Below, piece by piece: positions 2,105 through 37,823 of a DNA stretch of 39,591 nt. Source of the DNA: Thraustochytrium aureum (Eukaryota); the NCBI GenBank assembly GCA_012862495.1, contig BLSG01000216.1:436814-476404 (forward strand). Direction: 5' to 3'. A program made the translations under genes and the position numbers. Below the pieces are notes generated by a model. It had not been told where the DNA came from and did no database searches. It saw only the letters and a list, made by a program, of their open reading frames with translations. Every line of letters begins with the position of its first letter. Position 1 is the stretch's first letter.

Positions 2105-3338
2105 CGTCGCAACAGCCTTTCTCAGTTTTGCGAGCGCCCTGAAAAGGGCTTTACGAACGCGAGTTATTTTGCCCTTGTTGCTTCCGCCCTTGCGCAGTTG
2201 CTGCAGATGCTTGTGCTAGTCGTTGTGATTGATGCGCACTCGCGAATGGTGTCTGCTGCAGCGGTCAAACAGGCGCTCGGCAAGGCCGCCTTGGCCAATC
2301 TGGTCTGATCGACCCCTTGCACGTTATTGCTCGTACGCCGGAGCACCGATTCAGTGAGTGGCGCAACGCGGGAGTACATCACATCCTGAGTCACGCCATC
2401 ATCACCATCATCATCATGAGTGACGAGGTGAGCCACGTGACTGTGACCCGGAGCCTCGGAGGTAGATATACTCGAAGCGCGCGTCTGCCGGTGTGATTCA
2501 CGATGAGAGCAACGCGATCGATTGTTGTCTCAGCAAGGCGCAACGCGTTCGGCGAAGAACACGTTCGCCGAAGTCGGACACGTCGGCCAGTGTCACTCCA
2601 GTCACGGTCTCCAGTCACGGCCACCGCTCGCACGAGTCACGGTAGCGTACCCTCGTACGACGCTCTGCCAGGAAAGTCGCTCCTGCACTCCAAAGTAACG
2701 CCGCAATCCAGGATGCGCCGTCCTGCCGATAGGGCGCTACGAGCGTACGGTTGAAAAAGCGGACTTTAAACGGACGCAGCGCGAGGTGCATGTGCCCTGC
2801 GGCGCTTGTGGTGCTCCAAGCAGCCCCACCAACGTGTGCAGGACGCGAGGCTTACGCAGAGCTGCAAGGTCCCCGCGAGCGCAGCTGGACAGGAGCAGCG
2901 CGCAGGAGGCGGAGAAGACAGGAAGCGGCTCAGCAANNNNNNNNNNNNNNNNNNNNNNNNNNNNNNNNNNNNNNNNNNNNNNNNNNNNNNNNNNNNNNNN
3001 NNNNNNNNNNNNNNNNNNNNNNNNNNNNNNNNNNNNNNNNNNNNNNNNNNNNNNNNNNNNNNNNNNNNNNNNNNNNNNNNNNNNNNNNNNNNNNNNNNNN
3101 NNNNNNNNNNNNNNNNNNNNNNNNNNNNNNNNNNNNNNNNNNNNNNNNNNNNNNNNNNNNNNNNNNNNNNNNNNNNNNNNNNNNNNNNNNNNNNNNNNNN
3201 NNNNNNNNNNNNNNNNNNNNNNNNNNNNNNNNNNNNNNNNNNNNNNNNNNNNNNNNNNNNNNNNNNNNNNNNNNNNNNNNNNNNNNNNNNNNNNNNNNNN
3301 NNNNNNNNNNNNNNNNNNNNNNNNNNNNNNNNNNNGGC

Positions 3339-5544
3339 ATGGGCCTGCAAGCGGCTGTGCGGCGCATCGCCGTCGCGCAGCAGCTGCGGCGGCCCGCCGC
3401 TGCTGCTGGCCTCAAGTGGGGCACGAGGTCGCTCGCGAGCAAGGCTGGCGCCGGCCAGGATGCCCGGTTCAAGAGCACCGTCGCGGCGCCTGCGACGGCA
3501 GAGGCGGCCGAGCAGGACGACAGCAGGTTCATTGGGATGACGGGCGCGGAGATCTTCCACGAGATGATGCGCGAGCACAAGGTGGACACGGTGTTCGGCT
3601 ACCCGGGCGGCGCCATTCTGCCCGTGTTCGACGCCATCTACGAGAGCAAGTACTTCAACTTCATCCTGAGCCGCCACGAGCAAGGTGCCGGCCACATGGC
3701 CGAGGGGTACGCCCGGGCCACGGGCAAGCCCGGCATTGTGCTGGTCACCTCCGGCCCTGGCGCCACCAACACGGTGACCCCGCTCATGGACGCGATGATG
3801 GACGGCACGCCCCTGATCGTGTTTACCGGACAGGTCCCCACTGCTGCGATCGGCACGGACGCGTTCCAGGAAGCCGACGTGGTCGGCATCACGCGTGCCT
3901 GCACCAAGTGGAACGTGCTGGTCAAGGACGTCAAGGAGCTCCCGCGGCGCATCAACGAGGCCTTTGAGATCGCCACGAGCGGCCGCCCTGGCCCCGTGCT
4001 CGTCGACCTCCCCAAGGATGTGACCGCCGTCAAACTGACCACAAAGCCCGACTCGTCGCCGCAGATCGCGGTGCGCATGAAGCAAAAGGTCGAAATCTTC
4101 CACCGCGAGCGCGTCGGCAGCCCCGGCGAGGACGACTACAAGCTGATCGGCGAGATGATCAACGCCGCCAAAAAGCCCATCGTCTACTGCGGCCAGGGCC
4201 TCGTCCAGTCTTCCGGGAACGGGCCCGCCCTGCTCAAGGAGCTTGCGGAGCGCGGCAACATCCCCGTCACGACCACGCTGCAGGGCATGGGCGCTTTCGA
4301 CGAGCGCAGCCCGCTTTCTCTCAAGATGCTCGGCATGCACGGAGCGGCCTTCGCCAACTATGCCATCCAGGACGCCGACCTCATCCTTGCGCTCGGCGCC
4401 CGGTTTGACGACCGCGTCACTGGCCGCGTCGACACGTTCGCACCCGAGGCCAAGCGCGCTGAACGCGAGGGGCGCGGCGGCATTGTGCACTTTGAGATCA
4501 GCCCCAAGAACCTGCACAAGGTGATCAACCCGACCGTGGCCGTTCTCGGAGACGTTGCTGAGAACCTGGCCGCGGTTCTGCCGTACGTCGAGTACCGCGA
4601 GCGCGAGCCCTGGTTTGCCAAGATCGCGGACTGGAAGGCCAAGCACCCGTTCCACCACGTCCCGTCGACGGGCGACGAAGTCCTCAAGCCGCAGCAGGTC
4701 ATCGCCGAGCTGAACCGCCAGCTCCTCGAGATCCAGGACACCAAGGGCACCGAAGTGTTTCTCTCGCAGGGCGTCGGTGCGCACCAGATGTGGGCAGCTC
4801 AGTACATCACCTGGACCAAGCCGCGCCAGGTGATCACCTCGGGCGGCGCAGGGACGATGGGCTATGGCCTCCCCGCTGCCATCGGCGCAAAGGTTGCGCG
4901 GCCCGACGCCATCGTGATCGACATCGACGGTGACGCCTCGTACTGCATGACTGGCATGGAGCTTCTGACCGCCGTCCAGTTCAACATTGGCGTCAAGGCG
5001 CTGATCCTGAACAACGACTTCCAGGGCATGGTCAAGCAGTGGCAGACGCTCTTNNNNNNNNNNNNNNNNNNNNNNNNNNNNNNNNNNNNNNNNNNNNNNN
5101 NNNNNNNNNNNNNNNNNNNNNNNNNNNNNNNNNNNNNNNNNNNNNNNNNNNNNNNNNNNNNNNNNNNNNNNNNNNNNNNNNNNNNNNNNNNNNNNNNNNN
5201 NNNNNNNNNNNNNNNNNNNNNNNNNNNNNNNNNNNNNNNNNNNNNNNNNNNNNNNNNNNNNNNNNNNNNNNNNNNNNNNNNNNNNNNTTACGACAAGCGC
5301 TACTCGGGCACCGAGATGGTCAACCCGCGGTTTCGACAAGCTCGCGGAGGCGATGGGGGCCAAGGGCCTTTACGTCAACAAGGAGGCCGACCTTGCGCGT
5401 GTGATCAAGGAGTTCATCGACTACCCCGGGCCGGTCGTGCTCGAGGCCTTTGTGGACAAGCGCGAGCACGTGTTTCCCATGATGCCAGCTGGCGGGAGCC
5501 TTAGCGACATGATCCTCGGCCACGAGGAACCCAAGGAGGCTTAG
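3339..5544 (+). CDS. ALS: Acetolactate synthase (acetohydroxyacid synthase) catalytic subunit, mitochondrial precursor; N gap 5054-5287 and apparent frameshift near 5331-5333
   Basis: VFGYPGGAILP, RHEQGAGHMAEGYAR, TSGPGATN, GQVP...GTDAFQE, RFDDRVTG, ThDP motif DIDGDAS...LNN, GMVKQWQ. The C-terminus (MGAKG...HVFPMMPAGG) is in ORF 5353..5544. The N-terminus is Arg/Ala-rich like a presequence. Confidence 0.97.
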
Positions 5545-21995: not shown

Positions 21996-24387
21996 TGGGT
22001 GCTCTGCTGCTTGTGTCGCGTCCCTCGTGGTCTCCGTTTTAACCTCGCTTGGTGTCTCGCAATGGTGAACAGCGCCGTTCAGTGAATTGCCAACACTGAG
22101 CCCCACACTCTTACAAGTCTCCATGCGCTGCTTGGCGAAGTGAGCAGCCAAGAAAGGGACACACATTCTTTTAGTTAAGGGCCGCGTTTTCTGAAGCGCA
22201 CGCAGGACGGGTTTTCGCCGCTCACTCACCCCCTCGACATCAGCCCCCGGCAATGCGGCCATTCCGCCAGCCCGTCGCGACTTCCTAGGGAGTCCCATCC
22301 CTCCAACTGGCGCTTTCTCAAAGGCGTGATGGCTGAATTGCCTCGCTCCAGCTCGTGCGGCCGGCCCTGAGCCAGCGCCTGTGCAGCGAGGGCCGCCTCG
22401 CCGGGCCTCTGCCGAGAGCGAGACTGCGTTGTTCCGCACTCCGAGCATTTGTCAAATCTCTGCAAGAGCGCTCCAGCAGCCAGCCCCTTCCTGAGAGAGT
22501 GCCAACCCACGCACATAGAAACAAGGGTGGCCAGGGATTGCTCAAACCAAGCCCTGGCTCCGCGTCTGCGCGTGAGACAGCGGGGCGCGGATCGTCCGCC
22601 TTGCACGCGCACTGCGCATCTGCACAGCACGTTCGACTCCCGACGGCCGGTCTTTTCTCATGGCTCTCGCCGCGTCGGGCTCCGCGTGTGGCTTCGAGTC
22701 CTTCGACCTGCACCCAAATCGTTTCGCGCTGGTCGATCACACGACATTGATTTCACGACTCTGGCGATCTCGAGCTCGCGCGCAGTGGACGCGTTGCCAA
22801 CAGGAGGTTTTCTGGGCTGCGCTCCCGCGCGCCCTATCAACGCCCCTCGCCCTTCCGCCCACGCGCGCAAACCATGATGTCATGCGCCTGGATTGCTGCG
22901 CGCCAGCCGTGCGGCGGATTTTCGTCTGAAGGCGGTGTGACGGGTGGGCGGCTTGGCCGATTTCCAGGTTCCAGGTCACAGCTCGCGACGCAGCCGTGGG
23001 CCAGCGATCACAAGCGCCGCCCGGGCGACGCCGTTTGCGTCTCGCCCTCGCCGTTTGTCCCCGCGNNNNNNNNNNNNNNNNNNNNNNNNNNNNNNNNNNN
23101 NNNNNNNNNNNNNNNNNNNNNNNNNNNNNNNNNNNNNNNNNNNNNNNNNNNNNNNNNNNNNNNNNNNNNNNNNNNNNNNNNNNNNNNNNNNNNNNNNNNN
23201 NNNNNNNNNNNNCGCCGTTTGTCCCCGCGCCGTCGCCCCGTCGTCTGCCTTGTCTCCGCCGGCGCGAGACCTTCTCGTTGTCGCCATCCTTCGCCTTGTA
23301 AGTTTGCCTTTCCTTGCGACTCCCGAGCACTGCAACTTGCGCCGTGACGACTCTTGCGCGAACTTCGCCGCCAGAAATGCGCAGGCGCAGCCCTTCGAGT
23401 CCCGCTGCGGCTCCGGGCCACGACGTCGACACCGTTGCTGTCAAGGCAGCAGCAGGGGTCGCAGGTGCAGCTCCTCTGCAGCGTGCGACCGAACTCGCTT
23501 TGCGACACCGCGTTGCGACACCGATCCGGAGTCCGGACCATTGATGCTGATGGTCCGTGTCGGACTGCCGACTCCATTGGTGCTGTGTGGCCCTTGATCC
23601 GCCTCACAAGAGTGGCAACAGACTGTTGAGGGACGCCTGTTGAGGAAGGGTGCCCGAGCAACTTGAAGTCGGTCCGACTCGGGGCGTTGTGGAGTGGTTG
23701 GGTGTTGTTCCTCTGCGCTCAGTAGGCTAGCTAAAGAGCGGTGCGACCTCAAAAGAAACGAGAGAGAGACGGCACTGCCCAAGCTTTGATTTCAAGAGCA
23801 GGACAGGCATCTTTCTGAATTCTGATTCTGAATCTGAACTCTGCGCTGTTCTGCATTCTTTCTGCTCGTGGGGCTTGTGCAGTCGGCCAGCCTGAGTTCT
23901 GAATTCTGAACCTCGCCAACTCCTCTCCGGGGGAACACCTCAACGGACGGGGAGGTTCAAGATTTGTACATCTTGAATTTTACGAGTTCCCGAGCAGGTT
24001 GGAAGGGGTACCGGTATCTTTGGTAGAGCGAACACAGAAAGGTGCGCGTTACTATTCCCGAGAGGGCCAACTTGAAGGAGAAGGGGGAAAAAACCAAACC
24101 GAGGCCGCAGAGAGGCGCAGGACGAAAATCGGTTCATGCAGGCTGAGGCAAGCGCAAGAGGCGGGGAAACCAGACAGTCGTCGGTGAAGTCGAGGTTACC
24201 CCGAGCCAAACCACCAGACCGACTCGCTGAGCAGGCGCTGCGTTGCGAGTCGCGCGAACCAACCAGCAGGGCGCGAGTGCGCGAGAGGAGCTGTTCCGCG
24301 GCGCGCAGAGGCCGAGGAGCAGCAGCGCGCGACTGGCGGGAGGGAGCCCCTTCTCCAACGGCTCCGCCCCCGCGCCCGCCTTGCTCT

Positions 24388-24480
24388 GCGGCTTGGCTGG
24401 CTTGCTTGCGGCGAGGCTTGCTTGCGGCTTGGCTGGCTTGCTTGCGGCGAGGCTTGCTTGCGGCGAGGCTTGCTTGCTTC
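24388..24480. repeat. Imperfect GC-rich minisatellite (GCTT/GCGGCGAG units) upstream of the zinc-finger gene
   Basis: gcggcttggctggcttgcttgcggcgaggcttgctt x2 plus a partial unit. Confidence 0.85.
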
Positions 24481-24523
24481 CGCGGGGCTGAGCGTGGCTG
24501 GGCGGGGCCTGGCGGGCGCCGGG

Positions 24524-25639
24524 ATGGACGAGGCAGACCACGGCGACGCGGGCGACGCCGGCCTGACGTGCCACGTGCCGGGGTGCAGCAATAATGTGAC
24601 GCCCGGGGGAGATACGTGCAGGACGCACGGGGGCCGCAAAAGGTGCTCCGAAGAAGGGTGCAAAAAGTTTGCGCAGGCGCCGACCTTGCAGTGCAAGTCG
24701 CACGGCGGTGGGTATCGGTGTCAGTTTCCAAAGTGCCACAAGTCGGCGGCGAGCAGCGTGTACCGCTGCGCGGCTCACGCTGCGGACATCTCTCACGTCC
24801 AGGCGGTCCAGCCCTCCTGCCTTCGCGCTTGCCAAGTTGACGACTGCCAAGAACGCAGCAAGATCGTCGCCTATCTGTGCAAGACGCACGGCGGGGGCAA
24901 GCGCTGCATCGTCAAGGGTTGCGCCCGTTCCGCATGCGGCCGTACAAACCTGTGCGTCGCCCACGGGGGCGGAAGGAGGTGCATGAACCCGGACTGCTCA
25001 AAGTCCGCTGTCGGGTCCACCGCGTACTGCGTCCAGCACGGTGGAGGACGCAGGTGCGCAGTTGATCAGTGCACGCGCAGCGCGAGGAGCGGCACGCAGT
25101 ATTGCCAGGCGCATCGGCGTCAGGAGGAGCTCGGCCTTCCCAAGAGGTCACACGTCCCATCTCGGCCGCGCCGCGCCGTCGTCGGAGGCGGGGCGCAACC
25201 TCTCATCTACACGCATGCGCTGCCGGTGATGGAGCCAGGCAAGGCTTTATCGCTCCCGCCGGCTCCACCAGGCTATGTCGCGGTCGTCAGCCACGTGCCA
25301 GCCTCCCTTTTCCCGCCGAACGCGGCTCAAGTAGCCCAGGTGCACCTCGACCCGTCGACGGGGACCGTAACATTTCCTTCTGGAGAGACGGTCCCCGCGA
25401 GCGCCCTGGGAGTGCCCATCGCGTACGAGACGGAGCAGCAAGGGCCCGATTCCCCGTCGCAACACGACGACGCAGCCCAGGCGCAGCAGGCCCCAAGCCA
25501 GGAGAACTCGCTCGACAGGCATTCCAGTGCGGCCTCCAGGGCGTCCAATCAGGAGACTCGCGGAGCACCGAGCGAGGCGCCATCCGAGGCGATCGGGCAC
25601 GACATCCACGCTGCCCACCGGCCCGAGGCGCACGCCTGA
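24524..25639 (+). CDS. WRKY19-like zinc-finger repeat protein (C-x4-C-x10-C-x2-H-GGG repeats) with P/A/Q-rich C-terminus
   Basis: Seven C-x4-C...C-x2-H units, e.g. CIVKGCARSACGRTNLCVAHGGGRRCMNPDCSKSAVGSTAYCVQHGGGRRC. ATG at 24524. This repeat is common in stramenopiles and plants. Confidence 0.88.
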   Translation: MDEADHGDAGDAGLTCHVPGCSNNVTPGGDTCRTHGGRKRCSEEGCKKFAQAPTLQCKSHGGGYRCQFPKCHKSAASSVYRCAAHAADISHVQAVQPSCLRACQVDDCQERSKIVAYLCKTHGGGKRCIVKGCARSACGRTNLCVAHGGGRRCMNPDCSKSAVGSTAYCVQHGGGRRCAVDQCTRSARSGTQYCQAHRRQEELGLPKRSHVPSRPRRAVVGGGAQPLIYTHALPVMEPGKALSLPPAPPGYVAVVSHVPASLFPPNAAQVAQVHLDPSTGTVTFPSGETVPASALGVPIAYETEQQGPDSPSQHDDAAQAQQAPSQENSLDRHSSAASRASNQETRGAPSEAPSEAIGHDIHAAHRPEAHA

Positions 25640-26256
25640 CATGCTAGAGGCGTGCACAAGCGCCAGAGCCTGTTTTGCAACAGGCGGCGGGGCGATAGCT
25701 CCCGGACTAACAGTAAACACATCTCTTCGAACCCGCCGCTTGGCGTCAGGGTCGTTCTTCCGAAAATGCTGCCCGGAGCCGGGGGCTCTTATCTTTATAA
25801 ATNNNNNNNNNNNNNNNNNNNNNNNNNNNNNNNNNNNNNNNNNNNNNNNNNNNNNNNNNNNNNNNNNNNNNNNNNNNNNNNNNNNNNNNNNNNNNNNNNN
25901 NNNNNNNNNNNNNNNNNNNNNNNNNNNNNNNNNNNNNNNNNNNNNNNNNNNNNNNNNNNNNNNNNNNNNNNNNNNNNNNNNNNNNNNNNNNNNNNNNNNN
26001 NNNNNNNNNNNNNNNNNNNNNNNNNNNNNNNNNNNNNNNNNNNNNNNNNNNNNNNNNNNNNNNNNNNNNNNNNNNNNNNNNNNNNNNNNNNNNNNNNNNN
26101 NNNNNNNNNNNNNNNNNNNNNNNNNNNNNNNNNNNNNNNNNNNNNNNNNNNNNNNNNNNNNNNNNNNNNNNNNNNNNNNNNNNNNNNNNNNNNNNNNNNN
26201 NNNNNNNNNNNNNNNNNNNNNNNNNNNNNNNNNNNNNNNNNNNNNNNNNNNNNNNN

Positions 26257-27916
26257 CGCGGTTTAGCAGGTTGAAAACTCCAGAGCGCGCTCAGCTAGAC
26301 GGTCCCCCGTCGCCGCTTCAGTGTACAGCTCGCTCATAAGCGCGACGTCCTCTGCGGTGCAGTCCTTCAGCTGGGTGAACGAGCAGGATGGGCCCGTGTG
26401 CGCCGAGGAGGCGGCCGGCCGCGCCGTGCAAAAGCCGCGCGTGGACGCTCTCTTGGCGGCCACGCGGCGGACCGAGACGCGGAACCTGTTCCCGACGTCC
26501 TCAACGTAGCAGCCGCGCAAGTAGCGCGAAACTGTGCGCAGATCAGGGCCGTCGCCCTTGCAGTCGACGGTCAGCGGCCGCTTGCTCGGGTCCGCGTCCT
26601 CCTGCGGCGACGCCTCGGCCACAAACTCGGACCGCCCGTGCAGGAGGCGGGTGTTGGAAAAGACGAGCATGTCACCTGGTGCCAGCTTGAAATTAATCAG
26701 CTTGCTCGGGCTGTACAACTCGGCGATGAACTTGCTCTTCGCCCGGTAGAACCGCTCTGTCTCGTCGATGGAGGCGGCAATTGGCGTGGCGTCGAGGCGC
26801 CCGCTGAAAAACACCCGCTCCACACGCCCAGTGCGTCCAAGATTGATCATGGGCCTGGTCTGTGACGAGCTCGTTCGTTTCATCTGCGTAGCGAAACCTC
26901 ACCGGAGTCTCGCACAGGATATCAAACGCCTCTGGGTCGCTCAGCCGCAGCGCTTGCGCCGCGCCGGCGCCGTCGGAGAGCGTGGACTCGCCGCCCACCG
27001 CGCTCTGCTTGAGACACTGCAGCACCTGGTACAGGAGCGGGTTTTCGTTGTATGGCCCATCCGTGTGCAGCGGAATGCCCAAGCTCGAGTACGCCGCGTC
27101 GACCAGCGATGCCCCTTCCTCTGCAGTAGCCTCGGGCTTGGCGACCACCTCGAACCAGCGCCCCCAGTTTGTCTGGCGCAGCGAGCTCCATTGCTGAAGG
27201 AAGGTCTGGTACTGCGCGAACGGGCCGGGCGAGTCCTTGACAAGGGCCGCACCGTACACGAGCAGGTCATGCTGGAAGGCGTACATGCCTTCCACGCTCG
27301 CAGCAAGGTCGGCGTAGCGGTGGGTCACCGTGTCGAGCGAAAAGGCGCCGCCAGTGTCCTCGCCCCAGTACTTTGGCTCGGGCGAAGCGAGCGAGACGAT
27401 GGGCGGCGCCGGCCCCGATGGGTTCGCCGAGAAGGGCTCGAACGCAAACCCGTCGCGCGCTTCGGCGAGCAGCAGCTGCAAGTCGAGCGTGTCTTCGAAT
27501 CCGTCTGTGTAGTGGACGTGCAGCTGGCCGGACTGGCTCACGACCGCCCTCTCCACGATCCCGCCCGCCTTGCCCAGCAAGTCGCTTGCTTCAAACAACC
27601 GCTGCTTCGACGGCACGTGCAAATGGTCCGGGTTTCTTGTGCGCTCACGAAGCCAGAGCGCGTGCATTTGAACCACCTCCCCGTCGCCGCACTGCAACGC
27701 GACGCCGCGTCCGTCCCCTACAACCTGTACCGCCACGCCGTTCGCCACCGTCCCGCCCTCCACCTGCGCCGTCGCAACGCCGCGTCCTCCCACAGCCCAC
27801 GCCCCTCGCCGGCCCGCCAGGCTTCGCACAGCGTCAGAACCAGCGGCTGCAGCAGCAGTAGCAGCAGTAGCGCCGCGCCACGATGCGCGAAGCATCATCC
27901 CTTTCCCACGGATCAT
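26257..27916 (-). CDS. Gamma-butyrobetaine hydroxylase-like Fe(II)/2OG dioxygenase (GBBH-N/DUF971 + TauD domain) with presequence and C-terminal extension into a probable HD-domain; frameshift near 26862, 3' end in gap
   Basis: HALWLRER...KQRLF N-domain, QTNWG, AYSSLGIPLHTDGPY (HxD), GGESTLSDG, then in the second frame FSGRLD, LAPGDMLVFSNTRLLHGRSEF (distal His) and RYLRGCY (2OG Arg). ATGs at 27916, 27898 and 27895. Confidence 0.9.
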
Positions 27917-28644
27917 CACGCCACGCACGGCAGTCCGAGCTGCCACAACAGCGGCAGCCACGCGAGGCCTGGGGGCCCGGCCGCTACGCCAGGTCGACAA
28001 AAAGTTGGCCAAAGCGACCAAACGGTCCTTCCGTCCCCGCGCCGACCTCCAACGAAAGCACACGGACGCGCCCAGCNNNNNNNNNNNNNNNNNNNNNNNN
28101 NNNNNNNNNNNNNNNNNNNNNNNNNNNNNNNNNNNNNNNNNNNNNNNNNNNNNNNNNNNNNNNNNNNNNNNNNNNNNNNNNNNNNNNNNNNNNNNNNNNN
28201 NNNNNNNNNNNNNNNNNNNNNNNNNNNNNNNNNNNNNNNNNNNNNNNNNNNNNNNNNNNNNNNNNNNNNNNNNNNNNNNNNNNNNNNNNNNNNNNNNNNN
28301 NNNNNNNNNNNNNNNNNNNNNNNNNNNNNNNNNNNNNNNNNNNNNNNNNNNNNNNNNNNNNNNNNNNNNNNNNNNNNNNNNNNNNNNNNNNNNNNNNNNN
28401 NNNNNNNNNNNNNNNNNNNNNNNNNNNNNNNNNNNNNNNNNNNNNNNNNNNNNNNNNNNNNNNNNNNNNNNNNNNNNNNNNNNNNNNNNNNNNNNNNNNN
28501 NNNNNNNNNNNNNNNNNNNNNNNNNNNNNNNNNNNNNNNNNNNNNNNNNNNNNNNNNNNNNNNNNNNNNNNNNNNNNNNNNNNNNNNNNNNNNNNNNNNN
28601 NNNNNNNNNNNNNNNNNNNNNNNNNNNNNNNNNNNNNNNNNNNC

Positions 28645-29652
28645 TACCAGACGCTTGACGGGTCAGACGGCAAGCAAGCGCGCCGCACCAAGTCGGGGAG
28701 CGCGCTCGGCGAGCTCATGGACCACGGCGTCGACGCCGTCGTGACCACGCTCCTGGCCTTGCTCGTGGCGGACGTCTTCCGCTTCGGCATCCTTTCCGTG
28801 TGGCCCTGGACTTTCGTCGCCGTTGCCCTGCTCAGTTTTTTTCTGAGCAACATGACCCTCGTTCACTCTGGGCGTCAGGTTTTCTTCGACCTCGACGTGA
28901 TGGAGATTCAGACGACCATGATCCTCACACTCCTCGGCGCGGCAGTTGGCGGAACGGAGATGTTCGACCAAGTGTCGATTCCGCTCCCCTCTGCGCTGCA
29001 CGGCGTCAAGACGGACCTGTGGGGCATGCTCCAGCCCGGCGAGGAGGTTGACTTTACCGGCGGGACGATGTCGCTCAAGCTCTTTGTGGTGATTGGCGGC
29101 CTGGGCGGCTGCTTGTTCAACTACCCGCAGTACATCTTCCACTCTGCGCGGCCGTACCTGCTCTTGAAGCCCGAGGACCGCCCGGAGCACATCAAGAAGG
29201 GCGTGCCAGGGTCGGGGTTTGCAGCGCTCGTGCTGCATCTCGTTCTGATCCACTCGTTCTTCGCCCTTTGCGCCACCAGCGTGTACTACGGGACCAGGCT
29301 AGCCACGCCGGCGCGCTCGGAGTCTGCCATGCGCGCGTTCGCCGTGCTGGTGGCCTTTTGCTTCGGAGACCTGATGGACCGCGTCCTGCTTATGCGAGTC
29401 GCGCACGAGCCACTGCCAGTCGTCCCCAAGGGTCTGGTGCCTCTCCTCGCGTTTGCGGTTCTCGCCGCCTTCGACGCGAACGTAGAAAAGTTTGAGGGCT
29501 CCAACCAGCTCTTGTCGAGGGTGGCCTGGTGGAACGTGCTCGCGTTCCTGGCGTGGGTGCAACACCACGCGTACTTTGCGCGGTCGGTTATGTCTCTCGC
29601 CTCTGCGCTGGGGATCCACCCGTTCAAGATCCGCGCCACAAAAGACGAGTAG
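28645..29652 (+). CDS. CDP-alcohol phosphatidyltransferase, choline/ethanolamine phosphotransferase (CEPT/EPT) type; 5' part in gap 28077-28643
   Basis: [30 protein letters not shown] is the complete D-x2-DG-x2-AR-x8-G-x3-D-x3-D motif. Multiple TM helices follow, and the C-terminus LGIHPFKI is typical of CEPT1/AAPT. Confidence 0.92.
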
Positions 29653-30097: not shown

Positions 30098-31847
30098 ATG
30101 AGCGAGGCGGGTGACTTGCACGGCGACTCTGCCATGGCGGCACCTGAACGAGAGCCCGCCAGCAGCTCCACGCAAGCGAGAACGGCAGACGAGGGGAGCG
30201 CAGAGNNNNNNNNNNNNNNNNNNNNNNNNNNNNNNNNNNNNNNNNNNNNNNNNNNNNNNNNNNNNNNNNNNNNNNNNNNNNNNNNNNNNNNNNNNNNNNN
30301 NNNNNNNNNNNNNNNNNNNNNNNNNNNNNNNNNNNNNNNNNNNNNNNNNNNNNNNNNNNNNNNNNNNNNNNNNNNNNNNNNNNNNNNNNNNNNNNNNNNN
30401 NNNNNNNNNNNNNNNNNNNNNNNNNNNNNNNNNNNNNNNNNNNNNNNNNNNNNNNNNNNNNNNNNNNNNNNNNNNNNNNNNNNNNNNNNNNNNNNNNNNN
30501 NNNNNNNNNNNNNNNNNNNNNNNNNNNNNNNNNNNNNNNNNNNNNNNNNNNNNNNNNNNNNNNNNNNNNNNNNNNNNNNNNNNNNNNNNNNNNNNNNNNN
30601 NNNNNNNNNNNNNNNNNNNNNNNNNNNNNNNNNNNNNNNNNNNNNNNNNNNNNNNNNNNNNNNNNNNNNNNNNNNNNNNNNNNNNNNNNNGTGATCCGCG
30701 CCGGACCCCGGTTTGTCATGGTGTTGCCGTGTGCGGCCCCTTGATGCTGGTTGTGTCCTCGCGGCGCGACGAGCCGGTTGGGTTTTTGCAGCTGCAGCTC
30801 GAGTTCCTCTACGCACAGATCCTCTTCCACTTCACGCTGAGCGCGTTGGAGGACGCGTTCAAGCGCAAACCGGGCTACGACCTGCGCGGGCTTCTCGGAG
30901 GGGCGCGCACCGAGCTTGAGGGCATTGTCGAGATGGCCAGCAGCTCGCCCGCGCTGATGCTGCAGGCAGTGCCTACTCTGCGGCTCCCCACGGAAGTGCG
31001 CACCGAGGCCACTAACATCCTTTTCTCGGTACGCCAGTCCAACGTCGTGTATGCAATTTTGCTCGCTGGGGACCACCTCGTGACGCACATCGCCCCCAAG
31101 CGGCACCCGCTCTTGGCATCGGATCTGCTGTTGCTGATGAACTTTGTCTCAAAGGCCAAACAGCTACGCTCCCAAGAGACGTGGACGCCGCTTTGCCTTC
31201 CGGGTTTCAACAGCACTGGGTTTCTCCACGCGTACGCGGCGTTTGTTTCGGAAGGAACTTGCCTGCTTCTCCTCAGCTCGGGCGAGTCCCTCGACCAGTT
31301 CCATTATTGCTCCGAGTCCAAGGCCAGTGTGGCCGCGCAGCTCGCGCAGACGGGGGTGGCGGCGAAGATCGAAGCCGCGGTCCGCGAGGGCCCGTTGCCG
31401 CCGCAGAACTGCGAGGGCGCTTCCTCCATCCACATGGTGTTTCGCTCCCTCAAGTACGACCAGTACTTTGAGACGGCGGTGGCTTCTCACGCGCCACTCC
31501 ACAGCGGCCAGGTCGCTCGGGCGGCGGTCTTGGCTCGGTATGCCAACGTTTCTGAGCGTCTGCATGCGTATCGCCGGCGCATCCAGCTCGTGGCTCCAAC
31601 AGACGGTGGGGCCGCAGGGCAGAAAGAGGACACGTCGTACGCGGCTGGCGTGGAGCTCGGGGAGATCTGGGACGTGCGATCCACCGAGGCCGTGCTCGCG
31701 GTGCTGAGTCCGCCCAATTTTGAAGCGTACGCCTCGTTCCACAGCTTTACTTCGGCGACGCAGGCGATGTCGTGTTTGACGCGGTTTGCGGCGTGGGCGA
31801 GGGGCGCCAAACACGACCTGTTTGTCGTTAAGCCCCCGACGTGGTAG
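30098..31847 (+). CDS. MON1: Vacuolar fusion protein Mon1/SAND (Rab7 GEF subunit); N gap 30206-30690
   Basis: QLEFLYAQIL...FKRKPGYDLRGLLGG, HPLLASDLLLLMNFV and ETWTPLCLPGFNSTGFLHAY are Mon1 hallmark segments. Probable ATG at 30098 before the gap. Confidence 0.9.
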
Positions 31848-32592: not shown

Positions 32593-33390
32593 CCCTTCGC
32601 GCCGTCCGCTCGCGCGACCGGCCCGTCCTCACCGCGTGGCAGCCCAGGACGAGCGGCGCGGGGAGAGAAAAAAACAACGAGCGTGGTCCGTTCCAAAAGG
32701 CCTCTTCCAAGCACGCGAAAGGCCAGCCGCTCGCCCGTCAGAGCGCCACAAACGCCGCCCTCGCGAGCGCACACACGCAAGCAAGCCAGCCAGCAAGCCC
32801 GCACGCAACGCGACGCAACGCAACGCCGGCCGTCGCTTCCGCCCCCTTCGAGGTCTGCTCCTGTCCCATCCAGCCCAACGTACAAACGCCCCCGGCAGTC
32901 TCCCGATCCCCTCGATACATCCTCTGCAAGATTTTTCGCGTCACTTTCTGTACCATCGTGACGTGGCTCTCGGCAGCTTGCGGTCGCGGTAGACGTCGTG
33001 ACAGCGGAACAGGTGTGACGTGCGCCCGGCGCCGGAGCTCCTCCGTCACGCTAGAACCTACGTGACGTGAGTGGTGGCCGCGACTGCGCCGGGAGGACTT
33101 CGGGCACGTCACACAGGGAGCCACTATACCCGATATGTCACGTCTGTTTGGTTTAGGCGAGTCACAGAGGCGTGGGTGTGACGAGCGGAGGGAAGATACG
33201 GGCAGAGGCAGAGCAGAGCACGAGCGAAGGCCAAGGCGGCAAGGCAGACCAGAGACGGAGAGGGAGAGTGCAGGAGCTGCAGCGGGGCTCTCCAGAGGCA
33301 GGCAGAGAGAGCGCGCGTATTGTGCGGAACGCGCGCGGGTGCGCGTTGGGCCGGCTGCTGGGCGGGCAGCAGGCGGCTGCGGGCACGGGA

Positions 33391-34932
33391 ATGGACTCGG
33401 CAAGCTCGAGCTCGAGCGCCGGCGGCGAGGGCTCTGGCGCACCAGAAGGCGTTGATGTGGGCGTGATTCGCCAGAGGTACTCCGGGAATGTTCGCGCGAA
33501 CAGGCTGCTGATGGTGGCGGAGAAGGTGGAAGGGTTGAAGGTGGCTGCCGTGAACGCGGCGCTCGAGACGTACAAGGAGCTCGGCAACTACAGGCTCTTC
33601 TCGCAGACCTTGGATCGGTACCAGGACGTCGCCGACGCTGCGCTGGTCGACCCCGCCTGGGTGGCCAAGGCAGAGACGCAGGCAAAGTCATCTCTCGGGA
33701 ACCTGCAGGCCGAGCTCGAGTTGGCGCGATCAAACATGGTGAAAGAGTCCACGCGCATGGCGCTTAACGACCTCGGCGACTTGCACATGAGGCTGGGCGA
33801 CTACCAAAGCGCGCTCAAGTCGTACATCCGAACGCGCGACTACTGCACTAGCACTGCACACCAGATCGCCATGTGCCTCGGCGTGATTCGCGCGAGCGTC
33901 CTGATGAACAACGCGTCAAGCGTGACCACGCACGTATTGCGCGCCCGCGCCGCACTAGGACCCAAGTCCGAGGATCAGGTGGCGCTCGCAAAGCTCAGTG
34001 CTGTGAGCGGGCTCTCGCATCTACTCGTAGAAGAGTTTGAGTCGGCTGCCCGCGAGTTCCTCTGCGTTGGCCGCGAGCTCGGGAGCAGCTTTAACGACGT
34101 CCTCGCCTCCGAGGACGTTGCGCTGTACGGCGGCCTGTGCGCTCTCGCTACGATGTCGCGGTCTGCGCTTCGTCACGAGGTCCTGGGCCACCCCACGTTT
34201 AGGAGCTTGCTCGAGTCGACGCCGCTCGTGCGGGACGTCATCTCCGAGTTTCTGTCCTCGCAGTACACGGCAATGTTCAAGTCGCTAGGCCGCTTGCAAG
34301 AGCAGGCGAGCGTCGACCCCTTCGTTCACCGAAGCCTGCCAAAGCTAGTCAAAATGATCCACACCCGGGCGCTCAAACAGTACGTGTTTCCTTTCAGCGC
34401 CGTGGACTTGGGCAAAATGGCCGAGGCCTTCGGCCTTGGCCTCTCCGCCCTCGAGGACGAGCTGTGCAGCCTTATTCTGTCGGGCGAACTTGAGGCCAAG
34501 ATCGACAAGCAGAGCAACTACTTGCTTCTCAGCGACCGTGACCCGCGTGACGTGGCGTACGAGCGCGTCGCTCAAGTTGGCTCCAAGTTTGCGCTCGAGG
34601 CTCGGACGGCCATATTGCACTTTAACCTCAACCGGCGGGGGGTCATGTTCGGCGATCGCCACTCCGCTGGGCGAGCTCGCCCGCTTTCATTTCGTCGTGG
34701 CGGGCGCATACGTCGCCCCATCAATGATCCAGGCTCGGCTGTTGGGAGCTCGGGCATGGACCTTGAGGAGGACGGCGAGGATGAGGAGGACGAGGATATC
34801 GAAGATGAGGAGTACGAGGAGGACGAGGAAGGAAGGAATCGCGCTTTCCACAGCCAACAGAGCGGTGGACAGTTTCGAGAACAAGGCGACGCAGAGATGC
34901 GGAGCACAATATCCGGCCCTGGGGCTTTGTAN
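33391..34932 (+). CDS. CSN1: COP9 signalosome subunit 1 (RPN7 + PCI domains); 3' end abuts an N gap
   Basis: YSGNVRANRL, SNMVKESTRMALNDLGD, ALKSYIRTRDYCTS, DVALYGGLCALAT, RALKQYVFPFSAVDL..MA.AF, LEAKID. The codon at 34930 reads TA(N), possibly the stop. Confidence 0.93.
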
Positions 34933-35500: not shown

Positions 35501-37276
35501 TCATAGCAAACCTTTGCGGCGCAAGGCCTTCTCCTCCTCCTCTGCGATCGTCAGATTAAATGTTGGCTTGACCAAGTCGATGGGGTCAGCGGCATCATAA
35601 TGGCCCGGGCCAGGGACCTCGTCGGCGCGCGCTGGCGCAAACCGTTGCGCCTCGGACAGGAAGACGGGCTTTCGGCCAGCCAGCCGCACGCGAAAGGCGG
35701 ACTGGTTGGTCTCGTATGCGCCGGGCCCGATCCCGCCGCTCCCAGATTCCACGCGACCAGCCGTGCTGCTCCGTGCCACCGTGCTTGCCATCAGCCCCTT
35801 TCCCGGGCGTCGCGCCACCGCGCGAGCCAAGCTGGTGACCTCAGCGGCGTTGTACTGGCCTGGTGGAGGGGCAACCGACCCTCCGCCATCACCAGCGCCC
35901 CAGCGCTTTGTTCGAGACTTGAACGCTGCAGAGCAACCCCCTTGCGCCACAGCGGTGGAAGGTGAGGATTCAACTTCGTTGTTGAACTCGCTTCTGGGTT
36001 GATCCAGCAGCTGTGCAGCCCGGCCAAAGGGCATACTTCGCGCGCGGTCTCGCGGCGACAGCGATCCGCGAAAGCGTCGGCTCGTGCTCCCAAAGGCCGC
36101 GTCGTGGGACTTTGGCACCATCGCCATTTTCAACTTGATTTCGTCCGCCATTCCTGGTATGTTGTACGTCCCCGGGGCTGCGGCAGTCCCCTTTGGTTGC
36201 GCGATGTTTGCGAGGTCCTCGCGCGTCGTTCCAGACGAAAACGGGACCTTCTTGCCTCGTATCCGAGAAGCGGATCGCTGCGAACCGAAAGAGCTTGAAT
36301 AATAGAACTTGGCGGCGCCTTCGCCGTGCGAACCCTTCGAGTCCATGAATCTGGCAGACTTTGTGCCGAAACAGCCCGCTCCACCAGACAGTCGCGAACG
36401 CGACGTGCGGCTTCCGTTCAGGTCGGCGTAGTGGCCTGGGCCGGGCACGTCAGCCGCCTCGCGGCTCGCCCCAATCGACCGTTTGGATCGTGATGCAAAC
36501 GCCGAGTGCAGGTTGGGGCGCAAGTTCCCCTTGAGGCCAGGGTTGGCTACAACTGGAACTCGAGACGGCGCGTCTGCAGCAGTCGCTACCTGCCCCACAG
36601 TGTCGTAATGGCCTGGCCCAGGGGTGTCCAAGATGCGCTGGCGCCTAGGCTCGCGTGGCGCCTGCTTGGCAAAGTCTGGCCCGCGCGGGGCTGCGTGAAC
36701 GCCTGCGCCTGCATCACCCGGATCGGACCTCGGCACGCGCTTTTGCCGCGGGCGAAGGCGCCCTGAAGAGTCTTGCTCATAGCCGAAAGCGTGGTCGCCA
36801 CTGGGAATCGTCGGCACGGTTTGCGCGCGGGGCCATGCGTGTGTCGCTCGCACAGCTCGGCGTGGCTGCGATTTGCGCGAGACGCGGGCGTCTGCTGTCC
36901 CAGGGATGTTGTATGCCCCAGGCCCGGGCAATGCCTCCTTTGCGTTTTCGCTTGGGGCCATGCGCTTGGTCGTCGAGGCGAACGTTGACCTGCATCCTGA
37001 AGGGGCGCTGGACTTTGATGGCTCGACACCCCACGAGTAGGTCCCTGGACCAGGTCGCGCAAGCGCGACTTTGGTGTCTATCGGTGAAGGTCGCGCTGCA
37101 GACGATGAAAACGGTGCTGTACTCTGCGCCTTGCCCCACTGCTCAATGCGCTGGTACGCTGCGTCGACATTGTACGACCCAGGTGCCAGGTTTGGCGTCT
37201 TGTTTGTCTCGCCGCCGCTCGGGTTGAACCCGCCGATGCGGCAGGTCTCCCTGGTCGTCCTGTGCACAAACGCCAT
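35501..37276 (-). CDS. Sperm-tail PG-rich (SHIPPO) repeat protein, STPG/ODF3-like, probably flagellar
   Basis: Recurrent PGPGxY/APGxY motifs (APGSY, PGPGTY, PGPGAY, PGPGHY x3, APGTY, PPPGQY, GPGAY) alternating with F.S...R motifs. Probable ATG at 37276 (MAFVHRTTRE). Confidence 0.88.
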   Translation of the reverse strand: MAFVHRTTRETCRIGGFNPSGGETNKTPNLAPGSYNVDAAYQRIEQWGKAQSTAPFSSSAARPSPIDTKVALARPGPGTYSWGVEPSKSSAPSGCRSTFASTTKRMAPSENAKEALPGPGAYNIPGTADARVSRKSQPRRAVRATHAWPRAQTVPTIPSGDHAFGYEQDSSGRLRPRQKRVPRSDPGDAGAGVHAAPRGPDFAKQAPREPRRQRILDTPGPGHYDTVGQVATAADAPSRVPVVANPGLKGNLRPNLHSAFASRSKRSIGASREAADVPGPGHYADLNGSRTSRSRLSGGAGCFGTKSARFMDSKGSHGEGAAKFYYSSSFGSQRSASRIRGKKVPFSSGTTREDLANIAQPKGTAAAPGTYNIPGMADEIKLKMAMVPKSHDAAFGSTSRRFRGSLSPRDRARSMPFGRAAQLLDQPRSEFNNEVESSPSTAVAQGGCSAAFKSRTKRWGAGDGGGSVAPPPGQYNAAEVTSLARAVARRPGKGLMASTVARSSTAGRVESGSGGIGPGAYETNQSAFRVRLAGRKPVFLSEAQRFAPARADEVPGPGHYDAADPIDLVKPTFNLTIAEEEEKALRRKGLL

Positions 37277-37823
37277 GCTCCTTGACTCGAACCGGCACGG
37301 CCGCGCGCGTGCGTTGCCTGGCTGCCTGGCTTTGCAGCAATCGCCGCCGCCACGACCAGCTTTCGCCCGTCCAGCCTGCCCAACCCTCGGGCTGTGAACA
37401 GGCGAGGCGGCATGTGCGGCGGCTGGTCGAAAGAGCCGCTTTCTCAATAGATCCGTTGGACCGCTGCAAAGGGCGAGTGTTGGGCAGTTAGGAACTTCTC
37501 GTGTCGCGGCCTGCGCAGCGACAGCGCTGGCGGCCGCGCTCTCGATCAGCACCAAGTGGTGCGCGTGATCCAACGCCACGCTTTTAAACGAGACGGAAGG
37601 CGGAAGGGATATGTTGAACGAAGAAGGCACTGCCGAAGCCAGCCAGCACCAACAAGGCCCTCTCGCAGTGGCGCAGTAGACCAGGCCCATGGTGTCTGGA
37701 AGCCTGTGGCGAGTCAGTTCAGAGGTGCCCGCAAAAAATGGCGGATAACAGCCTCTTCAATCTGAGCTCTATCTAGAGCCACGCCGACACAGGAGAGCCA
37801 TCCGGTTTGTGTTACAACGCCAG

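Follow-up and report, generated by a model that had tools for sequence, protein, structure and literature searches.

A single-gene Fe/2OG dioxygenase–HD domain fusion in Thraustochytrium aureum and its candidate betaine substrates

The locus

The window, a 39,591-nucleotide stretch of Thraustochytrium aureum contig BLSG01000216.1, carries on its minus strand a gene that starts with the ATG at 27916 and that the assembly splits into two frames: the first, of 352 aa, extends to 26861; the second, of 199 aa, runs from 26862 to a TAA at 26263. The gene joins a GBBH/TmpA-like Fe/2OG dioxygenase to the beginning of an HD domain, and runs on into an assembly gap. Its parts are as follows.

27770..27916, minus strand: N-terminal leader, rich in Arg and Ala with few acidic residues, likely a mitochondrial presequence (boundary approximate)
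27400..27769, minus strand: GBBH/TmpA-like N-terminal domain, with LWLRER at 27641-27658 (boundaries approximate)
26500..27399, minus strand: TauD-type Fe/2OG catalytic domain (Pfam TauD; NCBIfam TmpA is the best model, below its cut-off)
27089-27100, 27050-27067 and 26791-26805, minus strand: catalytic motifs DAAY, HTDGPY and SGRLD
26632-26643 and 26506-26526, minus strand: catalytic motifs LHGR and RYLRGCY
26856..26857: assembly frameshift 1, one base too many inside the dioxygenase, left out in 4/4 runs
26383..26499, minus strand: basic linker with a putative internal mitochondrial processing site (RGFCT, 26425-26439)
26257..26382, minus strand: N-terminal helices of the HD domain (SFTQLKDCTAED, 26347-26382; DRLAERAL, 26281-26304), aligning with the HD N-terminus of homologues P0003 and P0004
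26274..26277: assembly frameshift 2, A4 that should be A5
26263-26265, minus strand: false stop TAA, a product of the A4/A5 error
25803..26256, minus strand: assembly gap that presumably contains the HD core and 3' end; larger in reality than the nominal 454

Both frames pass the Pfam TauD model PF02668 (66.2 and 36.6 bits against 27), and the HxD...H...R signature of Fe/2OG dioxygenases is present in the window as HTD and LHGR. The Cys motif of human BBOX is absent from the N-terminal domain (27400..27769).

Read evidence came from contigs of four public runs in two studies. One run is probably DNA and three are probably RNA; these types are guesses, and none is recorded as RNA. The stop at 26263 is an assembly error, because an A is inserted behind 26273 in all four runs. 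The earlier note had anticipated this, reasoning that the stop would vanish if the A4 run were A5. The frameshift at 26856/26857, absent from that note, is likewise corrected in all four. (The contig of a fifth run, X5, ends at 26274 and is uninformative on A4 or A5.) No intron joint was seen in the run contigs. On the minus strand the frame continues past RYLRGCYVE into SFTQLKDCTAED...DRLAERALEF, as the earlier note had described; the extension is about 75 aa long, not about 65.

Elsewhere in the window, a CDP-alcohol phosphatidyltransferase gene (28645-29652, plus strand) stands head-to-head with the fusion gene across a gap at 28077-28643; this proximity is probably chance, though both touch choline-type chemistry. 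Five WRKY19-type zinc-finger repeats are encoded at 24188-25639 (plus strand), and such paralogous repeats produce loose ends in the run contigs. Long open frames of ordinary eukaryotic genes encode a TPP enzyme (3336-5051), a Mon1-like longin protein (30693-31847), proteasome RPN7 (33157-34929), and a SHIPPO-repeat protein (35501-37756).

The gap and the HD part of the gene

Thirty letters on each side of the gap at 25803..26256 were readable, and the window's HD ligands are inferred from homologues. The 30 letters past the gap edge are near-identical in four runs, with one synonymous difference. Translated by hand, they continue in frame as VQVERPVLGI, which matches MLGI of P0003 and, by that homologue, lies about 14 residues before the first His ligand. 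By the nearest homologues, 156-176 residues are still needed to complete the HD domain. Contigs of the presumed RNA runs extend 591, 511, and 542 letters into the gap; the first of these (X2, 870 letters) spans the last dioxygenase strand, the linker, and the HD start before it enters. The presumed DNA contig enters 334 letters from the opposite side. Nominal gap sizes in this assembly are indeed unreliable, as had been claimed: another gap is bridged by far fewer letters than nominal. A metagenome scan found only two bacterial HD loci and did not recover the window's gap.

That the gap hides a truncated or decayed HD part in this organism is exceedingly unlikely. So short a visible stretch leaves room for that reading, and the HD start of P0029, from the window's own clade, runs into unrelated sequence. 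However, an open homologous frame continues past the gap edge in 4/4 runs, and the presumed RNA contigs have room for the entire domain.

Fusions in protists and other records

The fusion, one gene for a GBBH/TmpA-like dioxygenase and an HD domain, is real. Used as a query, the N-terminal part of the window's protein retrieved two longer proteins from 7987 candidates, both of them full fusions. A search with the HD region gave 12 proteins from 1087 candidates, including Aplanochytrium and Mucochytrium, and all 12 contain TauD; the fusion is conserved in other protists, a point that the earlier note had proposed to check. Full fusions occur in labyrinthulids and in other records, and the closest full homologues share only 45-52% identity with the window's protein. 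P0003 comes from EukProt 'Hpha', which we take to be a diplonemid. Among the 150 best representatives, 30 combine TauD with the same HD family as the window homologues (29/149 plus P0013); another 22 combine it with a different, weakly scoring HD type, and the three of these that were scanned score best with PhnZ/TmpB-type models.

Fusions are common yet not universal. In some close relatives of the dioxygenase, the protein stops shortly after the GCY strand (P0047, P0057, and P0101; also P0026, on a 1.5 kb contig), a pattern that the earlier note had named as contrary to fusion. The 48-aa tail alone returned nothing notable in Pfam and nothing in a protein search.

In Saprolegnia and another record (P0037 and P0038), a BBOX-type dioxygenase is joined to the same HD family; the long linker of P0038 carries an RKFSS motif. 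The Saprolegnia dioxygenase belongs to another branch, which suggests a separate fusion event. The window's HD family is also joined to fatty-acid-hydroxylase-family domains, in 4/4 such proteins that match the family (P0051, P0137, P0142, and P0155). In locus L005 (7992-9638), the same HD family is adjacent to a fatty-acid-hydroxylase/sterol-desaturase-family domain, a second hydroxylase partner. Two three-domain proteins, P0105 and P0149, combine a phosphodiesterase/alkaline-phosphatase-like domain, a PhnZ-type HD domain, and a TmpA-like dioxygenase.

The dioxygenase

TmpA is the closest characterised enzyme by HMM, PDB sequence, and fold. Nonetheless, all scores against its model NF049936 are below the cut-off of 400: 126.8 and 68.1 bits for the window's two pieces; 199 and 217 for full homologues. 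The full homologues are also below the cut-offs for BBOX (TIGR02409, 169-189 bits against 414.75) and trimethyllysine dioxygenase (TMLH; TIGR02410, 119-140 against 268.3).

TmpA holds phosphonate through N187, N287, and R288, according to PMC9296572. At these positions the window has D, G, and R, and the N287 position is G or P across the set; Asp at the N187 position is also found in TMLH-like rows (DTAY). Such an Asp, we assume, may bind an amine or a hydroxyl. Motif and partner go together: DxAY with SxRLD (or SxKSG) accompanies the window-type HD family, and NxAY with NxRS accompanies PhnZ/TmpB.

An IQ-TREE phylogeny (48 rows, 247 columns, LG+G4; rows hand-thinned from 156 to 124, 87, and 48; the window row read through with X) unites the window, eukaryotic fusions, and bacterial pairs in a 30-row clade with support of 95/89, sister to TmpA. 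The window falls in an 8-row clade (100/100), and the link between the eukaryotic and bacterial branches is weak (85/78). A first FastTree, with the window left out, gave the same clade at 0.966; a second, of 87 rows that include the 48 used for IQ-TREE, did not recover the clade and differs in its deep branches.

The HD domain

The HD ligands H, H-D, and H are invariant in 38/38 aligned fusions; the last H is present in 35/38 and the last D in 34/38, the remainder being gaps. The ligand set of HD oxygenases is H...HD...H...H...D (PMC8177086). A predicted model of the HD domain of homologue P0054 (pLDDT 94.7) was compared with known structures. PhnZ (Z 18.5, rmsd 2.9, 154 aligned), TmpB (Z 16.9, rmsd 2.9, 156 aligned), and MIOX (Z 11.7, rmsd 3.2, 139 aligned) matched best, and every other structure scored 7.9 or less; Foldseek on this model also places these three closest. 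The modelled fold thus supports an HD domain of oxygenase type.

Against TmpB-type profiles, the domain gives an alignment of 154 columns (probability 99.1). Scores against the PhnZ/TmpB models (TIGR03276, NF049941, and NF052439) are 15-33 bits for fusions and 25-46 for bacterial members, below cut-offs of 214.6-300. The YxxE loop described for the PhnZ/TmpB family in PMC8177086 is absent, with Tyr in 2/38 and Glu in 0/38 fusions. The Lys of the TmpB motif HVxAKRY is Gln in 35/35, and in 23/35 the Arg three residues ahead of the last Asp is replaced by E or D. In TmpB-type HD domains, this Lys and this Arg presumably bind phosphonate. A search of the ESM Atlas yielded no more than bacterial HD clusters without names, some of them labelled MIOX. 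The model of full-length P0003 (pTM 0.56; linker pLDDT <50) is uninformative on domain contact, and Foldseek matches its dioxygenase alone.

Could the HD domain instead be a metal-dependent hydrolase, or act independently of the dioxygenase? Sources label the family 'predicted HD phosphohydrolase', and many genomes hold HD copies without an adjacent dioxygenase. This reading is nevertheless very unlikely: a gap in fold scores separates the three oxygenases from all hydrolases; the ligand set is that of oxygenases; and the domain is repeatedly paired or fused with different hydroxylases.

Bacterial pairs and their neighbours

A plasmid search returned 15 records, one of which contains a TauD-HD gene pair. 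This pair adjoins genes for a choline-binding protein, choline dehydrogenase, aldehyde dehydrogenase, and an 837-aa CoA transferase, which by its size and two CaiB domains we take to be DddD-like. A genome scan with the plasmid dioxygenase identified 46 loci: 29 of the new subfamily (DxAY/SxRLD) and 17 TmpA-like. An HD gene lies directly behind the dioxygenase in 27 of the 29, in keeping with the earlier note's mention of a bacterial HD family encoded beside GBBH-like dioxygenases. TmpA-type enzymes (NxAY/NNRS) are paired with a PhnZ/TmpB-type HD gene in 13/17 loci, and in 16/17 in a phylum sample.

Across 33 loci, mostly from related Halomonas and Pseudomonas, a betaine-, choline-, carnitine-, or DMSP-type gene stands beside the pair in 27, versus a phosphonate gene (phnWX or tmpAB) in four. 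The neighbours include a choline-sulfate-regulator-like LysR (22 loci), BCCT (six), choline-binding protein (five), carnitine dehydrogenase plus BBOX (three), a DddD-like gene (two), and choline sulfatase (two). A homologue 80% identical to the DddD-like copy at L092 adjoins genes for BCCT, an iron alcohol dehydrogenase, and methylmalonate-semialdehyde dehydrogenase; the dddTBC-dddD layout in PMC8163506 shows this same BCCT/dehydrogenase arrangement.

Among 121 Halomonadaceae genomes, the dioxygenase is present in 5/10 that carry the DddD-like gene versus 21/121 overall (Fisher p 0.014; p 0.041 without the centre genome), in a comparison that is small, ignores kinship, and is one of three tests. 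For choline sulfatase there is no enrichment with the dioxygenase in these genomes (7/21 vs 33/100). The corresponding BBOX search came back empty, had no positive control, and hence is uninformative.

Individual loci hint at pathways. L012, L013, L015, and L088 suggest a route from delta-valerobetaine through butyrobetaine to carnitine. The order at L088 (6838-15571) is BBOX-like, AraC, dioxygenase (DLTM/SNRTE), HD, 2-ketoacid decarboxylase, betaine-binding protein, class II aldolase, and aminotransferase; this is possibly a trimethyllysine-type pathway, and the bacterial partner at L088 passes the TmpA cut-off (443.7 vs 400). At L030, true tmpAB lies beside a window-type pair, which suggests that the two do different jobs. 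Two Flavobacteriaceae-titled bins (L043 and L047) have tmpAB much like Gammaproteobacteria copies, through transfer or mis-binning. PMC12421898 describes a SAR11 island in which choline dehydrogenase and carnitine genes accompany two genes labelled BBOX.

Substrate and mechanism

We predict, at somewhat better than even odds, that the dioxygenase and HD domain act in sequence on a betaine or sulfonium carboxylate, rather than on a phosphonate, and shorten it by one carbon. In the reactions of TmpA and BBOX, hydroxylation falls on the second carbon counted from the charged nitrogen. For beta-alanine betaine and DMSP, this carbon is also alpha to the carboxylate, which favours one-carbon shortening. 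A second enzyme is needed only for a stable hydroxylated product, and so the intermediate should be an alpha-hydroxy phosphonate, an alpha-hydroxy carboxylate, or a diol. Shortening is favoured further because the phosphonate residues are lost on both domains; because the neighbours are quaternary-amine and sulfonium genes; and because SmaX (PMC12186529) is an HD enzyme that cleaves the C-C bond of an alpha-hydroxycarboxylate.

In the first step of this proposed sequence, an aromatic cage would hold the trimethylammonium or dimethylsulfonium group while the dioxygenase hydroxylates the carbon next to the carboxylate. In the second, the diiron HD oxygenase would use O2 to cut that C-C bond, releasing CO2 and a betaine one carbon shorter. 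Two conversions would fit best, one giving glycine betaine from beta-alanine betaine, the other dimethylsulfonioacetate from DMSP. What this scheme chiefly leaves unexplained is the Asp at the N187 position, which is awkward for a plain carboxylate.

The earlier note had proposed a eukaryotic, one-gene version of the two-step oxidative pairs that act on organophosphonates. Fusion and fold sustain the one-gene oxidative pair; organophosphonate gives way as the leading substrate, given the lost ligands and the neighbours (27/33 vs 4/33). A TmpA/TmpB-like route for a different organophosphonate, with hydroxylation next to P followed by C-P cleavage and phosphate release, appears improbable. TmpA is the closest characterised dioxygenase by all three measures, PhnZ and TmpB are the closest HD structures, R288 is kept, and phnWX or tmpAB do adjoin the pair in those four loci. 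But N187 has become D and N287 G or P; on the HD side the YxxE loop is gone, the HVxAKRY Lys is Gln throughout, and the Arg before the last Asp is mostly E or D; and L030 retains true tmpAB next to its pair.

Another possibility, unlikely though deserving attention, is that the two oxygenases act on a substrate in which a hydroxyl, amine, sulfonate, or sulfate is present from the start (carnitine, homocholine, or a trimethyllysine-derived or taurine betaine), the HD domain then performing MIOX-like glycol cleavage or C-S cleavage. This would accommodate the Asp at the N187 position, and MIOX is the third structural match. Several contexts also point this way: the pair closes a carnitine operon after BBOX in three loci; it stands by choline dehydrogenase and aldehyde dehydrogenase in L003, by choline sulfatase or SulP in three loci, and beside the 2-ketoacid decarboxylase and aminotransferase in L088. 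Each such context is a minority of loci, however, and genomes with the pair show no excess of choline sulfatase. Moreover, sulfonates and sulfate esters, once hydroxylated, normally fall apart with no need of a second enzyme (TauD/AtsK chemistry), which counts against the sulfur acids. One-carbon shortening of a betaine or sulfonium carboxylate remains the reading we prefer.

Comparison with known systems

The TmpA/TmpB pair of Leisingera caerulea, which converts TMAEP to glycine betaine and phosphate, shares the dioxygenase-plus-HD logic and provides the closest solved relatives of both domains. The window's protein differs in being one eukaryotic polypeptide from a sister clade, in which N187 and N287 are replaced though R288 is kept; its HD family scores 26-33 bits against cut-offs of 215-300 and lacks the YxxE loop. 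PhoF of Fonsecaea multimorphosa, a PhnY-PhnZ fusion for aminophosphonates (PMC10574752), is likewise a eukaryotic fusion of an Fe/2OG hydroxylase and an HD oxygenase. In the window, by contrast, the first domain is TmpA/BBOX-like and the HD domain lies outside the PhnZ family; no PhnY model appeared among the dioxygenase matches at E 0.1, and PhoF was compared by its description. SmaO/SmaX converts Asp to aminomalonate by the same hydroxylation followed by HD-catalysed C-C cleavage, and fused forms have been noted. SmaX is mono-iron and uses a peptide substrate, whereas the window's HD family keeps the full diiron ligand set. BBOX and trimethyllysine dioxygenase share the fold, Fe triad, and aromatic cage positions; full homologues are below both cut-offs, and the window's protein has other carboxylate-site residues and adds the HD domain.

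Fusion of an Fe/2OG hydroxylase with an HD oxygenase is therefore already known from PhoF and SmaO-SmaX. The literature search, which covered one library, found no description of the window's pair of subfamilies or of their fusion; network figures of the closest primary papers may show the cluster. In the papers found, HD oxygenases number a handful (MIOX, PhnZ, TmpB, PhoF, and SmaX). The HD family of the fusion is a sister to these and is widespread; its substrate pocket differs, and it goes with a dioxygenase subfamily of its own. Databases label the pair BBOX or 'HD phosphohydrolase'; the fusion reveals the partner and brings a short substrate screen within reach. Should DMSP or another abundant marine betaine prove to be the substrate, the pair would provide a missing route of osmolyte cycling in bacteria and protists.

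Location and a putative internal cleavage site

The leader has four R+K and one D+E in its first 30 aa, similar to the leaders of P0003, P0004, P0005, and P0221; by composition, it is likely a mitochondrial presequence. The linker has a net charge of +6 to +8 in the window's clade. An R-x-F/Y/M-S/C-S/T motif is present in 7/8 linkers of this clade (the eighth has RNFGT) and in 1/26 outside it. The resulting 8/34 compares with 0.09 expected from elsewhere in the proteins and 0.22 from shuffles; the pattern was defined with the sequences already in view and the clade members are kin, so that the motif is a lead. R-2 sites occur at the junctions of mitochondrial tandem precursors (PMC8734313). 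The window's protein resembles tandem precursors of the yeast Arg5,6 type in its presequence-like leader and in the Arg-x-aromatic at the domain junction, cleavage here being putative. The precursor would probably enter mitochondria, where a cut at the linker may separate the two enzymes.

A fuller scenario is distinctly speculative. In it, a marine-protist mitochondrial tandem precursor would be cut after import into two oxygenases, which would hydroxylate DMSP (or beta-alanine betaine) at the alpha carbon and then decarboxylate it oxidatively, yielding dimethylsulfonioacetate (or glycine betaine); the second step would fall to an uncharacterised family of diiron HD oxygenases. This would form a DMSP sink without DMS release or demethylation, common to these protists and to Halomonas and Pseudomonas.

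Four fusions outside the window's clade (P0033, P0035, P0044, and P0049) have hydrophobic, signal-peptide-like leaders, which suggests that these proteins may reside in a different compartment.
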